Source: Candidatus Heimdallarchaeota archaeon
GTDB taxonomy: Archaea > Asgardarchaeota > Heimdallarchaeia > JABLTI01
Direction: 5' to 3'
Assembly (NCBI GenBank): GCA_019058275.1
Contig: JAHLVW010000036.1
Span: forward strand, 1-64,000
Length of the DNA: 64,000 bases
Below the pieces are notes generated by a model, which was not told the origin of the DNA, ran no database searches, and was given only the letters and a program-made list of their open reading frames with translations. Shown piece after piece: positions 36,872 through 55,360 of this stretch. The position numbers were made by a program, and so were the translations under genes. Numbering within the stretch: position 1 is the stretch's first letter; every line of letters starts with the position of its first letter.

Positions 36872-37633
36872 GTGCACATAATGAAAACCTCACGATCTAG
36901 AATCACAAAATTTCAAGACATAGAATCAACTCAGAAACAAGCTCATTTATACATTAAAGAAGGTAAAGCAACAGATGGAATGATTCTAATTTCAGAAACA
37001 CAGACTGGAGGAATTGGAAGACTGGATAGAGATTGGTCATCACCCAAAGGAGGATTGTGGATGTCTATAATCACACATAGGTCTATTCCTTTAGAATTCT
37101 TTCAAGGATTTTCAGTTAGAATTGGTTTAGCTCTAAGTAAGGTTTTGGAAGAATTTATCCAGATTCCAATCAAAGTAAAATGGCCAAATGATTTAATACT
37201 CAATGGTAAAAAAGTGGGCGGAATACTTGTTGATATAAGTTCCCAAGATGAATTTCTGCACTATTTAGTTTTAGGAATTGGGATAAATGTTAATGTCAAA
37301 TTAGACTGTCTACCAGATGAAGTAAGAAAGATAGCTACATCAATTAATTGTGAAACACAGAAAGAGCATCCAATTGAGAAAATTTTAGATTTACTTATCA
37401 GTGTATATGATCAAATCATTGATGATTTAGAAATCGGAGTAACCCTAGATCTATCAGATAATTGGGTAAAAAGATCCCATACATATAATTCAAATATAAC
37501 AGTCAAAACTGCTAATCAAATAATTGAGGGGATTGAAGTAGGCTTAACATCTAATGGTGAACTGATAATTAAAACCACAGACGGAGAGCACAAAATCTCA
37601 ATTGGTGAAATTGAACAGATAAGAAAAGCATGA
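36872..37633 (+). CDS. birA: biotin--protein ligase (no HTH)
   Basis: QTGGIGRLDRDWSSPKGGLWMS, KWPND, KKVGGIL, GIGINVN. Confidence 0.93.
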   Translation: MHIMKTSRSRITKFQDIESTQKQAHLYIKEGKATDGMILISETQTGGIGRLDRDWSSPKGGLWMSIITHRSIPLEFFQGFSVRIGLALSKVLEEFIQIPIKVKWPNDLILNGKKVGGILVDISSQDEFLHYLVLGIGINVNVKLDCLPDEVRKIATSINCETQKEHPIEKILDLLISVYDQIIDDLEIGVTLDLSDNWVKRSHTYNSNITVKTANQIIEGIEVGLTSNGELIIKTTDGEHKISIGEIEQIRKA

Positions 37634-37634
37634 A

Positions 37635-38438
37635 CTAAATCACGCTTACTTTATCTGGAATTAAGTTAACATATAATGCTTCTTTTAGTAAATGCTCAAC
37701 AAAGAATCTTCTAATCAAGCTAAAAGTTTCATAACGTGCTAGGCAATTCGTTAAATTATGGTCAGCATTTCCAATGATTTCGAATCTTTTTGGTAATTGT
37801 GCTTTCTGGTAGAGTTTTCTTATACCATTGATTGGCATGAAATCATCTTTAGCACCAGCAAGTATCATTAAAGGTCTTGGTGCGATTTTGCTTATACAAT
37901 TAAGTGGGTTGTTTCCCTTAATATCATTGACCAATTTTTCTTTAATACCTGTTGTTGGCAAACGAACTAAACCAGTTAGAGCTAATCCCTCCCACATCGC
38001 ATCAAATTCTGGGTAATTGACCATAAATTCAAAATCAAAAAGTGGAGCAAGTAAAGCTAAAGCAGAAACTCTTTGATCTCTAGAAACATGACAAGCTGCA
38101 ATTGCGCCACCTAAGCTTACTCCAAGAATACCAATTCTTAGTGGATTAACTTTGGTATGATTTGTCAAATAATTAATTACAATATCTAGATTCGCGAGTG
38201 AAGTTTGTATTGAATTTACTCCTGTGCTATCATAGAAACCAGTGAAATGAAATGCAAAATATGCAATTCCTTCATCTGTTAACATAGTTGCTATTTCTTC
38301 TTCCTTTTCAAATTTGTTTGAAACTAACCCATGAGCTTTACAAACTGCGGGATATCTATCCATACCATTGTTTGGGAAAAAAAACATGCCACTTATGGTA
38401 CTATTATAATATTGAATTGTCACTTTTTCCTTTATCAT
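37635..38438 (-). CDS. alpha/beta-hydrolase (candidate thioesterase)
   Basis: HG oxyanion motif, GVSLGG nucleophile elbow, GAKDD, ADH. Confidence 0.85.
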   Translation of the reverse strand: MIKEKVTIQYYNSTISGMFFFPNNGMDRYPAVCKAHGLVSNKFEKEEEIATMLTDEGIAYFAFHFTGFYDSTGVNSIQTSLANLDIVINYLTNHTKVNPLRIGILGVSLGGAIAACHVSRDQRVSALALLAPLFDFEFMVNYPEFDAMWEGLALTGLVRLPTTGIKEKLVNDIKGNNPLNCISKIAPRPLMILAGAKDDFMPINGIRKLYQKAQLPKRFEIIGNADHNLTNCLARYETFSLIRRFFVEHLLKEALYVNLIPDKVSVI

Positions 38439-38471
38439 TAATTGACTATATCTCCTGTTATAATATACAAT

Positions 38472-38948
38472 TTAACCAATCTTAATCTTCATGAGCAATT
38501 GTTTGGAAGAAACTTGATCACCTATACCTACTGCTATTCTTTCTATAATTCCATCAATTGGTGATAAAATCTCATTTCTCATTTTCATCGATTCTAATAC
38601 TAGAAGACATTGTTGATCTTTGACTTTCTCTCCAGCTTGAACCTTTATTTCCACGATTTTTCCTGCTATCGCTGCTTTGATATCTGTTCCTTTTTTGTGC
38701 TTGATATTTTTTCGACTCATTATTTGAGGAGCTGGTTTGAAATCAAAATCAATTTCTTTTCCATTTAGAAAAACAGTATTTTCCTTAAATTCAATCCTTA
38801 GCACTCTACCATTTACTAATACTCTGTAAAATCTGCCATTATAGAATACTTCGGGCTTGAATTGATAATCATTAATCTTGATGCCATTTGGAGATTGTTC
38901 TAAATCAAATTCAGAACCATGAATGCGAATCTTGTACTTTTTCTCCAT
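38472..38948 (-). CDS. biotin carboxyl carrier protein
   Basis: VLESMKMRNEI biotinylation motif. Confidence 0.93.
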   Translation of the reverse strand: MEKKYKIRIHGSEFDLEQSPNGIKINDYQFKPEVFYNGRFYRVLVNGRVLRIEFKENTVFLNGKEIDFDFKPAPQIMSRKNIKHKKGTDIKAAIAGKIVEIKVQAGEKVKDQQCLLVLESMKMRNEILSPIDGIIERIAVGIGDQVSSKQLLMKIKIG

Positions 38949-38951
38949 GAT

Positions 38952-53000: not shown

Positions 53001-53098
53001 TTGACCAATTGAAATCCAAATGAAAGTAAACTAGAAATTATATCAATAGGTAATTTTTAAAGATGTAGCACTCAATTATTGTTTGAGATAGTCAAAAG

Positions 53099-53145
53099 AT
53101 AGCTGGAAAATTGCAGATGATGTCCTCATCTGCAATTTCAGCTAT
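53099..53145 (+). promoter_or_regulatory. long inverted repeat in the leader of the downstream regulator-like gene
   Basis: ATAGCTG-GA-AAATTGCAGATGA / TGTCC loop / TCATCTGCAATTT-CAGCTAT; AGGTGA follows at 53153. Confidence 0.55.
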
Positions 53146-53164
53146 AATTTCTAGGTGAATTGAA

Positions 53165-55018
53165 ATGGCATTTGCTACGAGATCGAAATTTTTCTGGTCA
53201 AGGTTTATTGCAACTTGCGTGAAATATTTGGGAGTAGCAAATACTCAGCATCTTAGATATATTGCTGAAAAAATTCTTCCAACTGAAATGAGTCGTCAAA
53301 ATATTCTATATCATGTAAGAATTGCTGAAGAAAAGGGCTGGATAGCAACATTTTCTTCTGCTTTAGAGATGACTCATGAAAATGAAATTCTCTTTCGTAA
53401 AGCATTCCTTAAAACCATTCAAGAGAAAGTATCAGCTCAGAGATTTGTTATCTTTGGAACTGATGGTTTTGAACCAACAGCAGAAGAAAGGATAATTGAG
53501 GTTTGTAAAGAAGCAAATTTGGATCCAATCTCAATTCTAGAACCAAATATACTAGCTGTTATTACTGATAATTCTATTAAGCGATTAAGCTCAACAAAAG
53601 CAGATGCAGCTGGAAATCGATCTTTATTTATGGTTCTCTTACGATTTGGTTGGTTCTGGTTAAATATAAATCCCAATCAATCTCTCAAAATAATTGAAGT
53701 TCTAAAAAGCAATTCGTCAAAGCATCACTTTAATGATCATTATAAAATTGATACTGACCTTCTTTGGATTTCAAGTCTCTTGGAATTAGAAACATTGCCT
53801 GAAATAGACGTTGAAGATTTAAAGGACTATTTATTGGATTGCATCAAGTTTGCTGGTAATAAGAAAAGAACTGATATTATGAATCTAATGAGTATGACTT
53901 TACTAATCTCTGGTCGATATTTGGTTTCTTATAATGAGTTAGCGTTAGCAGAAGAGTATCTTAATCGAGGAATAAAATATCTACGTTTTAGTCAAAGGAA
54001 ATCAATTTTAATGCGTAAATTGCATGTAGATGGATTATTTGACCTTGGTTACATTTATACACAACAAGGATGGTTTTACAAAGCCTTAGGTATTTACGAG
54101 AATATTGAGCGAATAATCGAAGAAGAATTCAAGAAAAACGAACCTACAAGTAATCTTTTTGGTCGATTAGAACTAGCAAAATCTGAATTATATCTAATGA
54201 TGGCTTATCCATCATATACATTTCAAGATGAAGATTATAGAGCAGCATTGCTAAAAGCATCAAAACACGCAAGAAAAGCATTAAGGCTTTATCAGGTAAG
54301 TAAGAACAAGTTGCGAGTAACAGAAATTACATTGCTAAGTTCTTGGATAAATGCTTTAATTGGACGAATAAAACGAGCTGAACAGCTCCTCAAAAGAGGA
54401 GCAAAAGAGCTTGTTGCTCCTGTTCCTCCAAAATTAAATGTTCTATATTACAATGCTCAAGCTGAGATTTATAGAAAGGAAGGAAATTTTTCTGCAGCTA
54501 TAAAAAGTATTTCCCAATCATTTGATTATCTGAAAATTCTAGGTCAAACAATAGCTAAGCTATTCTGCATGACAAGATTGGCGGAATTACATGTCCATTT
54601 ATCAAAATCTGAAAATAGAATGTCATTCATTTCATTTGGTAATGTCACTAATTTATTTGGAAAACAAATTTCTGATATGATTAGTCATATTTTTCTCGAG
54701 AATAATAAAGCATTAACTGAACACTCTGCTATAGTTTCCTTCTTTATAACTGAGAAGGCATTAGAATCTCACCCAGAGATAAGTACTTATGTTGAATTTC
54801 TACCTGCTGATAATATTTCACCAGTACTTTTAGGAGAATCATTCACAATATTGCCTGAACATATTATCAATCACAACGGATACAATAAAGGAAAATCCAT
54901 TTGCATTGTAGGAACAATGGATTCAAAAGAAACAACTGATGATTTTCATGTAAGTAATTTCCATGATGAAATGGAAAAATTTGATGATATCTTTCAACAT
55001 CTATTATCAAAGAAGTGA
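53165..55018 (+). CDS. putative regulator: N-terminal winged HTH plus TPR-like helical repeats
   Basis: MSRQNILYHVRIAEEKGWI HTH-like segment; TPR-like repeats (LGYIYTQQGWFYKALGIY, AEIYRKEGNFSAA). Confidence 0.55.
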   Translation: MAFATRSKFFWSRFIATCVKYLGVANTQHLRYIAEKILPTEMSRQNILYHVRIAEEKGWIATFSSALEMTHENEILFRKAFLKTIQEKVSAQRFVIFGTDGFEPTAEERIIEVCKEANLDPISILEPNILAVITDNSIKRLSSTKADAAGNRSLFMVLLRFGWFWLNINPNQSLKIIEVLKSNSSKHHFNDHYKIDTDLLWISSLLELETLPEIDVEDLKDYLLDCIKFAGNKKRTDIMNLMSMTLLISGRYLVSYNELALAEEYLNRGIKYLRFSQRKSILMRKLHVDGLFDLGYIYTQQGWFYKALGIYENIERIIEEEFKKNEPTSNLFGRLELAKSELYLMMAYPSYTFQDEDYRAALLKASKHARKALRLYQVSKNKLRVTEITLLSSWINALIGRIKRAEQLLKRGAKELVAPVPPKLNVLYYNAQAEIYRKEGNFSAAIKSISQSFDYLKILGQTIAKLFCMTRLAELHVHLSKSENRMSFISFGNVTNLFGKQISDMISHIFLENNKALTEHSAIVSFFITEKALESHPEISTYVEFLPADNISPVLLGESFTILPEHIINHNGYNKGKSICIVGTMDSKETTDDFHVSNFHDEMEKFDDIFQHLLSKK

Positions 55019-55123
55019 AAAAACTGCATTTGTGAGCAATCAAGTGTAAAGAAAATGTTTATAATTTTAAGTGGGAATTTTTCATTACATATAACTAGGA
55101 GTTTACAATTATGATGAGGAATC

Positions 55124-55360
55124 ATGTTTGCTAACATTTTAAGAACATTACCCCCTAGTGCAAACTTTGTCTTTTATGTTCTCGATCGTTTAGGTCCACT
55201 ACCACGTAATAGAATTCTGGTTGAAACAAAATTACCAGATAGAACAGTAGGATATGCACTCGAGATATTATTGAAGAAAGGTCTTGTTACTAGAATGTTA
55301 GATGAAAAAGATGCTAGATTAAGAATCTATCAAGTACCTTCTCCAATAATCTTAACTTAG
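55124..55360 (+). CDS. small MarR-like winged-helix protein
   Basis: LPPSA, LPDRTVGYAL, GLV, DARLRIY. Confidence 0.8.
   Translation: MFANILRTLPPSANFVFYVLDRLGPLPRNRILVETKLPDRTVGYALEILLKKGLVTRMLDEKDARLRIYQVPSPIILT

Follow-up and report, generated by a model that had tools for sequence, protein, structure and literature searches.

The first 64 kb (hereafter the window) of a 153-kb contig from Candidatus Heimdallarchaeota archaeon (contig JAHLVW010000036.1, assembly GCA_019058275.1) contain an island at 36872-55360 in which a biotin-protein ligase, an alpha/beta serine hydrolase, a three-subunit acyl-CoA carboxylase and a 3581-residue iterative type I megasynthase lie together. This locus is probably a native cluster of the Heimdallarchaeia, acquired in ancient times, that would make reduced fatty-acyl chains de novo. 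Archaea have been described as lacking a fatty acid synthase (FAS) of type I, and nearly all of them as lacking acyl carrier protein (ACP) and its synthase ACPS (bioRxiv 10.1101/2024.07.05.601840). The evidence comes from the fixed linkage of the megasynthase to its carboxylase in every sampled genome of five archaeal families, from archaeal flanks shared between species, and from a complete set of elongation and reduction domains.

In the proposed pathway, BirA would biotinylate the biotin carboxyl carrier protein (BCCP), after which biotin carboxylase (BC), BCCP and the carboxyltransferase (CT) would convert acetyl-CoA to malonyl-CoA. The phosphopantetheinyl transferase (PPTase) fused to the megasynthase would prime both carrier domains, the acyltransferase (AT) would load malonyl units, and two ketosynthases (KS) would elongate the chain, with ketoreductase (KR), dehydratase (DH) and FabK-type enoyl reductase (ER) acting in every round. 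The linked serine hydrolase would free the chain, most likely as the free acid. With less certainty, this acid may be bound by members of an expanded FakB/DegV family, phosphorylated by a FakA-like kinase and joined to glycerol phosphate by PlsY.

Genes of the Cluster

The island begins with birA (36872-37633, forward strand; Pfam BPL_LplA_LipB and BPL_C), which scores 166 bits against TIGR00121 with a cut-off of 83. Three genes follow on the reverse strand: the hydrolase, a candidate trans-acting release enzyme (37635-38438; Pfam Hydrolase_4/Abhydrolase_1), BCCP with the biotinyl-lysine motif ESMKM (38472-38948; Pfam Biotin_lipoyl) and the ATP-grasp BC (38952-40424; Pfam Biotin_carb_N, CPSase_L_D2 and Biotin_carb_C). 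The single-chain CT (40564-42207; Pfam Carboxyl_trans, E 3e-195) and the megasynthase (42255-53000) are both encoded on the forward strand. For these six genes the open reading frame (ORF) listing and Pfam agree with the first-pass annotation, which was made from the window alone. The ATP-grasp BC, the MKM-bearing BCCP, the Carboxyl_trans protein and the cognate biotin ligase together have the features of a biotin-dependent three-subunit carboxylase.

Occurrence and Linkage in Asgard Archaea

Forty-one genomes of the class were sampled; f1 denotes the family of the host genus, f2 the Heimdallarchaeaceae and f3 the Hodarchaeales, the last recognized by a geranylgeranylglyceryl phosphate synthase (GGGPS) 70-100% identical to proteins labelled Hodarchaeota, Hodarchaeales or Hodarchaeum mangrovi. 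The megasynthase is present in 27 of the 41, that is in all sampled genomes of f1, f2, f4, f5 and f6, and absent from 14 of 14 sampled Hodarchaeales genomes. Of 151 Asgard genomes drawn evenly across the phylum, each with a completeness of 80% or more, 30 have it, 27 of them Heimdallarchaeia and three in two other families. Intact frames of 3574-3612 aa are found in seven other genomes of the host genus and in one of the sister genus g2, and identity over the whole megasynthase is 59-64% to other species of the genus.

The carboxyltransferase shares this distribution. A CT orthologue (at least 56% identity) occurs in 27/27 genomes with the megasynthase and in 0/14 without it, and lies directly upstream of the megasynthase wherever both share one assembled contig; Hodarchaeales have only a CT paralogue at 33-35% identity. 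At locus L083 the CT and KS are about 5 kb apart. The gene order in f1 is birA, hydrolase, BCCP, BC, CT and megasynthase, with birA, CT and megasynthase on the forward and the other three on the reverse strand, while in f2 it is birA, CT, megasynthase, hydrolase, BCCP and BC, so that birA, hydrolase, BCCP and BC are all linked in both families in differing order. The survey of Asgard synteny proposed in the first-pass annotation thus found the full linkage kept in f1 and f2 and reduced in f4, where the order is BC, BCCP, CT and megasynthase, with a synthase that lacks the fused ER and no hydrolase seen beside it. Because the 10 kb around 12 bacterial relatives hold none of the linked partners except one BC-like gene, the linkage to malonyl-CoA supply, BirA and hydrolase, seen only in archaea, is a feature of the archaeal clade.

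Archaea commonly use carboxylases of this kind outside lipid synthesis, and the best NCBIfam model for the CT is of the mmdA/PccB type, with a score under its cut-off. The carboxylase might then serve central carbon metabolism, by propionyl-CoA carboxylation or methylmalonyl-CoA decarboxylation, and adjoin the megasynthase by chance. The strict co-occurrence and adjacency of the CT orthologue speak against such a coincidence, as do the joint movement of BC, BCCP and birA with CT through rearrangements and the second, unlinked CT paralogue held by several genomes, and we consider it highly improbable.

Host and Integrity of the Assembly

The flanks of the island are archaeal, as the first-pass annotation had proposed: they include an archaeal RNase P RNA (3491-3829) and genes for a BpsA-C/AdoMet decarboxylase, a THUMP/ThiI-like protein, a TRAP-beta-like protein and an ArsA/Get3 ATPase, while a match to archaeal pilin falls just under the Pfam cut-off. 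The nearest homologues of megasynthase residues 1-720 are labelled Heimdallarchaeota or Asgard. The suspected Asgard host is thereby supported and can be placed in the class Heimdallarchaeia. Base composition, previously judged by eye, shows no sharp jump at the borders (GC 0.32-0.37 within the island and 0.30-0.33 outside), and conservation of the cluster across five families upholds the long residence that had been read from it.

The genome is 93% complete, with an estimated contamination of the bin of 6.8%, and some homologues carry the labels Zixibacteria or Bathyarchaeia, which could point to a bacterial fragment joined to archaeal DNA in assembly or binning. Such an artefact is hardly credible. 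The same flanks surround the island in three further species of the genus (G008, G009 and G010), where the gene order is kept all the way from arsA to sdhA, and two closed single-contig Heimdallarchaeum genomes, including Ca. Heimdallarchaeum aukensis CP084166, also contain the cluster. A single 48-kb Logan contig from the likely source run covers 35600-55500 at even depth, and an independent second run, from a strain that differs slightly, has two contigs that meet within the CT gene and cross both borders of the island. The check for a chimera is thus negative. No RNA data set was listed for the locus; a run labelled metatranscriptomic, but flagged as "probably DNA," has short contigs that match the BC, CT, megasynthase and TPR-like genes at 90-97%.

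Two of the labels mentioned above belong to homologues P0009 and P0011, which have 62-66% identity and near-identical architecture; NCBI labels them Bathyarchaeia/Zixibacteria, yet they are nested in the clade of the genus, and their bins are probably mislabelled or contaminated. In CP084166 the megasynthase is split into two frames (1510 + 2729 aa) with a repeated KS-AT segment (L008, 9989-22538), and in the sister closed Heimdallarchaeum genome it is one frame of 3519 aa; a duplication accompanied by a frameshift, or else misassembly of a nominally "complete" genome, lies behind the split.

Domain Organization of the Megasynthase

The megasynthase is encoded by one uninterrupted open frame, and comparison of pieces of the protein with Pfam and solved structures gives the order ER-ER-KS-AT-KS-ACP-ACP-KR-DH-PPTase, all on the forward strand. 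The N-terminus consists of two tandem FMN-type ER domains of the FabK/NMO kind (aa 1-320 and 328-600; 42255-44054), matched twice by Pfam NMO and by the FabK structure 5gvj (E 1.5e-25), with a score under the cut-off of TIGR03151. KS1 (44442-45854; Pfam ketoacyl-synt and Ketoacyl-synt_C) is of the polyketide synthase (PKS) type, and its Cys940, His1074 and His1112 are invariant in the alignment of homologues. The AT (46302-47204; Pfam Acyl_transf_1, with the FabD-like TIGR00128 under its cut-off) carries the motifs GHSMGE and AAFH, which suggest a malonyl-type enzyme. KS2 (47604-49151) resembles FabF/FabB (PDB FabF 4ddo, E 1.7e-20) and has Cys2037, His2185 and His2225, the motifs of this triad being kept in archaeal orthologues. 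Two intact but dissimilar KS domains suggest a division of labor, perhaps between priming and elongation or between short and long chains.

Both carrier domains lie at 49287-49850 and are matched by Pfam PP-binding at a weak 20-21 bits. They are followed by a KR with the motif YSAAN (50535-51206; Pfam KR, E 5e-32), a PKS-type double-hotdog DH with HxxxNxxxxP and EAAFQ (51408-52217; Pfam PKS_DH_N and PS-DH) and a fused Sfp-type PPTase with GIDLE and WTAKEA (52455-53000; Pfam ACPS, E 3.7e-15). No FabA-like DH and no malonyl/palmitoyl transferase (MPT) is matched by Pfam. Since there is a single module, the enzyme would act iteratively.

Carrier Domains With Threonine

Both ACPs carry the motif LGIDTVKQAE, in which threonine (Thr2388, 49416-49418, and Thr2488, 49716-49718) stands where the phosphopantetheine-bearing serine is normally found, so that the conserved serine of carrier proteins is absent. 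The substitution is not confined to this protein. Nearly all carrier motifs of its clade that were matched by the search pattern have threonine at that site, with the consensus LGIDTVKQ(A/V)E, and the clade comprises Asgard archaea, Desulfobacterales including cultured species, Desulfomonilaceae-type bacteria, metagenome-assembled genomes (MAGs) of Myxococcales, and Thermoplasmatales. The sister bacterial clade has serine (LGIDSIKRVE), and the two closed Heimdallarchaeum genomes as well as homologue P0021 have a mixed Ser-Thr-Ser triplet of carriers in one protein.

Were priming impossible on threonine, the megasynthase would be a relic without activity, or an enzyme that does without its carriers or has some other unorthodox mechanism. 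The replacement of a universal serine in both ACPs and a motif for which no literature was found are what such a reading draws on. A relic would not be expected to retain a fused PPTase with intact motifs, however, and threonine is kept throughout the clade, cultured Desulfobacterales included, where the motifs are intact and the frames, at about 3500-4200 aa, are open; the Heimdallarchaeum proteins even combine both residues. We therefore regard loss of the carrier function as very unlikely.

Proposed Chain Release

In nine orthologues of the hydrolase the GxSxG serine (Ser108), Asp198 and His227 are invariant, and in f2 the gene lies directly downstream of the megasynthase. The predicted structure (predicted local distance difference test, pLDDT, 85) has as its nearest matches esterases and a lipase trapped with a monoacylglycerol intermediate, and the structural matches further include GrgF and DcsB, hydrolases that release PKS products. 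Release of the chain by the linked hydrolase is the most plausible reading. A role of hydrolase and megasynthase in biotin synthesis by way of pimelate was considered and set aside, because the gene that precedes the hydrolase in f2 is the megasynthase and not birA.

Family and Origin of the Enzyme

The best NCBIfam model for the megasynthase is PfaA (TIGR02813), at 868 bits with a cut-off of 1010, and fusions of ER and KS at the N-terminus are found at 30-38% identity in many bacteria, among them Desulfobacterales, Myxococcales MAGs, Chryseobacterium, Pedobacter, Streptomyces, cyanobacteria and Planctomycetes. In most of these bacterial homologues a PfaC-like gene then follows. A quick maximum-likelihood tree of 59 ER+KS regions, rooted at the midpoint, without modular PKS as outgroup and flagged by the tool for compositional heterogeneity, separates the threonine-carrier clade from the serine-carrier bacterial clade (SH-like approximate likelihood ratio test, SH-aLRT, 100), and the former, with the Asgard copies, is sister to bacterial ER-PfaA-like proteins. 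In the same tree the Asgard copies group as a single clade (SH-aLRT 99) beside Desulfobacterales, Desulfomonilaceae-type and Myxococcales lineages. Five threonine groups can be distinguished, namely Type S-like proteins of Desulfobacterales with a reductase domain at the end of the chain, a Desulfomonilaceae/Thermodesulfobacteriota group with a fused PPTase as in the archaea, two Myxococcales MAGs, one Thermoplasmatales protein and the Asgard clade; the tree does not settle their branching order.

With KS, AT, a second KS, tandem ACPs and KR in one chain and an associated Sfp-type PPTase, the enzyme can be counted among the Pfa-like "secondary lipid synthases" of bacteria, in their threonine-carrier subclade. 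The first-pass annotation had asked for its KS, AT and CT to be placed relative to PfaA, enediyne PKSs and type I FAS; PfaA is its best model, with a score below the cut-off, and its domain content differs from that of the other two kinds. The novelty that had been seen in an archaeal enzyme of this type was overstated, as it belongs to a widespread bacterial family. The most parsimonious history would have the gene imported from a bacterium that was probably Desulfobacterota-like, ahead of the divergence of the non-Hodarchaeales families of Heimdallarchaeia, with vertical descent thereafter. Among solved structures the KS-AT region is much closer to bacterial PKSs (E 3.6e-135) than to animal FAS (E 1e-59 to 1e-64), and the enzyme has no special link to eukaryotic FAS. 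The suggested relevance to eukaryogenesis is therefore unsupported, the enzyme being absent from the 14 sampled genomes of the Hodarchaeales, which are most often placed next to eukaryotes.

The bacterial relatives have been catalogued as secondary lipid synthases of unknown product in a study that does not mention archaea (Shulse and Allen, 2011; PMC3098273). Type R of that catalogue (Koribacter, Solibacter, Elusimicrobium, and Roseiflexus) and Type S (Desulfobacterium autotrophicum) share with the archaeal enzyme the single iterative chain of KS-AT-KS/chain length factor (CLF)-tandem ACPs-KR, and are likewise accompanied by an Sfp-type PPTase and sometimes by an acetyl-CoA carboxylase (ACC) gene (PMC3098273). 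Proteins of the D. autotrophicum type also have the threonine motif and fall in the same clade. Unlike Types R and S, the archaeal chain has two ER domains and the PPTase fused to it, a catalytic cysteine in KS2 and the full linkage to BC, BCCP, CT, BirA and hydrolase, and it lacks the terminal reductase domain (PF01073) of Type S-like proteins. A genome-mining paper lists a Heimdallarchaeota "PKS cluster" without further analysis (PMC7472256), and two Asgard genome papers, one on circular genomes (PMC8813620) and one phylogenomic (PMC10307638), do not mention the enzyme. The all-in-one synthase is thus known from sister proteins in bacteria, but the literature searched contains no description of a fixed coupling to ACC, BirA and hydrolase or of class-wide retention among archaea.

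Other multidomain systems resemble the archaeal enzyme in part. With the polyunsaturated fatty acid (PUFA) synthase PfaABCDE it has in common the FabK/PfaD-type ER, tandem ACPs with LGID(S/T) and the iterative logic, but it lacks the PfaC-type pair of FabA-like DH domains and a cysteine-less CLF, and since these are absent, no route to cis double bonds is visible. Enediyne PKSs (PKSE; KS-AT-ACP-KR-DH-PPTase), compared here by description and not by sequence, are iterative type I enzymes with a C-terminal fused PPTase and a separate release hydrolase. They have neither ER nor a second KS and make a conjugated polyene, whereas a pair of ER domains and a FabF-like KS2 are present in the archaeal enzyme. 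Type I FAS of fungi and of the Corynebacterium-Mycobacterium-Nocardia (CMN) group uses an FMN-dependent TIM-barrel ER and a dedicated ACC for malonyl-CoA, and in fungal FAS the PPTase is fused. Compared with fungal, CMN and animal FAS, the archaeal enzyme has another domain order and lacks MPT, thioesterase (TE) and the scaffold domains that form the barrel. The ACP-independent synthesis of Sulfolobus is likewise a proposed de novo route in archaea, but it is CoA-based, with ketothiolase and DUF35, whereas the Heimdallarchaeia locus is carrier-based (bioRxiv 10.1101/2024.07.05.601840).

A specialized-metabolite PKS, making for instance a polyene, a long-chain alkyl product or a signaling lipid from an accessory cluster without a role in bulk lipids, deserves most attention among the other readings, though it too seems unlikely. 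The nearest solved structures of KS-AT, the PKS-type DH and the lack of a TE domain fit a PKS, and so do the listing of the cluster as one (PMC7472256) and the unknown product of the bacterial relatives (PMC3098273). Accessory clusters are usually patchy in distribution, yet this one is present in every sampled genome of five families with a fixed carboxylase linkage; the single iterative module with its full set of KR, DH and ER, and the co-occurrence with expansions of PlsY and FakB described below, also speak against an accessory PKS.

Weighing the Proposed Pathway

The claim of the first-pass annotation that the locus covers a complete acyl-chain pathway stands as far as the set of domains is concerned, which is complete, and for the hydrolase, whose Ser-Asp-His triad is intact; priming of the carriers in cis becomes conditional with threonine at the attachment site. 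A search of literature texts for the carrier motif GIDTVKQ returned no paper, and no report of a PPTase modifying threonine at that position was found. This is the first of several points that weigh against de novo synthesis of reduced fatty-acyl chains. The CT is PccB/MmdA-like in sequence, by which a preference for acetyl- or propionyl-CoA is not settled. The f4 megasynthases (about 3235-3309 aa; G014:C21 and G022:C7, loci L089-L094) begin at the KS without the fused ER pair, and no separate ER gene was seen near them in the flanks inspected; the hydrolase was not seen beside the cluster in that family either. By Pfam the megasynthase has no TE domain, and the predicted fold of the hydrolase is that of a generic esterase or lipase, for which the fold search leaves the choice between a thioesterase and an acyltransferase role undecided. 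Given the linkage and distribution set out above, synthesis of reduced fatty-acyl chains nevertheless remains the probable function of the cluster.

Lipid Context

The host genome encodes a possible outlet for the acyl chains. There are 13 matches to PlsY, 11 of them at E ≤ 1e-15, and 23 to DegV/FakB, often in adjacent pairs. A Pfam-verified cluster of fakA-like (Dak2 + FakA_M), degV and plsY genes lies on another contig; examples of these PlsY and DegV loci are C69:78075-80768 (L110:4076-6766), C8:15919-19462 and C70:9226-11150. In the class and phylum samples, PlsY matches at E ≤ 1e-42 are confined to Heimdallarchaeia with the megasynthase, and DegV copies number 9-23 in f1 and f2 genomes at least 80% complete, 5-10 in poorer bins and 0-1 in Hodarchaeales. 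In both closed Heimdallarchaeum genomes one copy of PlsY adjoins birA-CT-megasynthase. PlsY and PlsC in Asgard bins had been judged unlikely to work for want of an acyl supply and of PlsX (PMC6431249). The Fak system, with which PlsX is not needed, would accept the free acid that the hydrolase is expected to release.

Genes of the archaeal ether-lipid pathway show a complementary pattern. In most other Asgard families almost all sampled genomes have canonical GGGPS (PF01884; E 1e-43 to 1e-65), whereas Hodarchaeales give divergent matches only (E 1e-10 to 1e-14), the 17 genomes of f2 give one strong and two marginal matches, and the sampled genomes of f1, f5 and f6 give none. In the 93%-complete host genome neither GGGPS (five queries) nor glycerol-1-phosphate dehydrogenase (G1PDH; two queries) was matched, and G1PDH and PlsC were not detected in the host genus. 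Counts of PlsY, DegV, and GGGPS are phylogenetically clustered and reflect one or few events, not many independent ones. Two UbiA-family genes in the host genome are too unspecific to be called digeranylgeranylglyceryl phosphate synthase (DGGGPS), the GpsA model PF01210 gave weak generic matches only, and candidate CdsA matches by PF01148 proved to be the CarS loci again. The sole strong GGGPS of f2 (G034:C45:1515-2198, E 1.9e-55) lies on a 7.6-kb contig with bin-like GC and shares 43-45% identity with the enzyme from two other Asgard families; retention of the gene, its transfer or mis-binning of the contig could each account for it.

On this basis it is possible, if doubtful, that in non-Hodarchaeales Heimdallarchaeia fatty acids from the megasynthase pass by way of the hydrolase, FakA/FakB acyl-phosphate and PlsY into fatty-acyl ester, or mixed, membrane lipids. 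As in the Gram-positive FakA/FakB-PlsY system, Dak2+FakA_M, DegV and PlsY are present in the archaeal genome, but the C-terminal domain of FakA, PlsC, and PlsX were not found there. Bacteria usually hold single copies of FakB and PlsY, whereas the archaeal paralogues are far more numerous. This downstream route meets difficulties of its own. Several PlsY copies carry stop codons, and an in-frame TAA occurs in the degV of the fakA-like cluster. The C-terminal domain, for which PF13684 re-matched DegV genes only, is missing from the FakA-like gene. PlsX was found in 0/5 genomes, and two PlsC queries gave no match in the host genome. CarS is present, and FakB and PlsY could instead serve scavenged fatty acids.

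Other Features of the Window

A 13-bp palindrome, TTTTAC(N)GTAAAA, stands twice (40468-40480 and 40513-40525) in the spacer (40425-40563) from which the BC and CT genes diverge. The pair and its spacing of 40-45 bp are kept in four species of the genus in an otherwise diverged spacer, with one half-site shortened in G008 and G010, and the palindrome is likely an operator for some regulator, judging from this conservation. A mark of a genome-wide regulon is ruled out by its mere four copies in the 4.1-Mb genome, two of which are in this spacer.

The two genes at the distal end of the island had been described as HTH-like, a label that the searches do not confirm. Both ORFs are present, on the forward strand, but the first (53165-55018), a candidate for a role in the island, encodes a 617-aa TPR-like protein with sub-threshold TPR matches only, and the second (55124-55360, from the ORF list), 78 aa long and possibly a small winged-helix protein, has no match in a search of NCBIfam. 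The 617-aa gene is syntenic in G008, G009, and G010, and was not seen beside the cluster in families other than that of the genus.

Upstream of the island, the gene at 36309-36689 matches Pfam AdoMet_dc and is 83-84% identical to its orthologues in G009 and G010. At 29286-32304 an ArsA/Get3-like ATPase adjoins a protein that combines BatD and TRAP-beta (translocon-associated protein beta) domains, and this gene pair is syntenic in G009; by their domain content the two are eukaryote-like components of membrane-protein biogenesis.

Implications for the Heimdallarchaeia

The part of this cluster in the story of eukaryogenesis is limited, as it is an apparent bacterial import, not found in the sampled Hodarchaeales and without special likeness to eukaryotic FAS. 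Its meaning lies rather in the biology of the Heimdallarchaeia themselves. The cluster would provide the upstream acyl supply that was thought to be missing in Asgard archaea, alongside a PlsX-independent FakA/FakB route to PlsY. If the acyl chains do end up in ester lipids, this would fit the loss of recognizable GGGPS in the same lineages and, in the host genus, of G1PDH as well. A natural archaeal lineage would then stand partly or wholly across the lipid divide, with threonine-linked carriers as a further biochemical novelty. Enrichments of Heimdallarchaeum exist, and whether any Asgard archaea make fatty-acyl lipids thereby becomes experimentally approachable.

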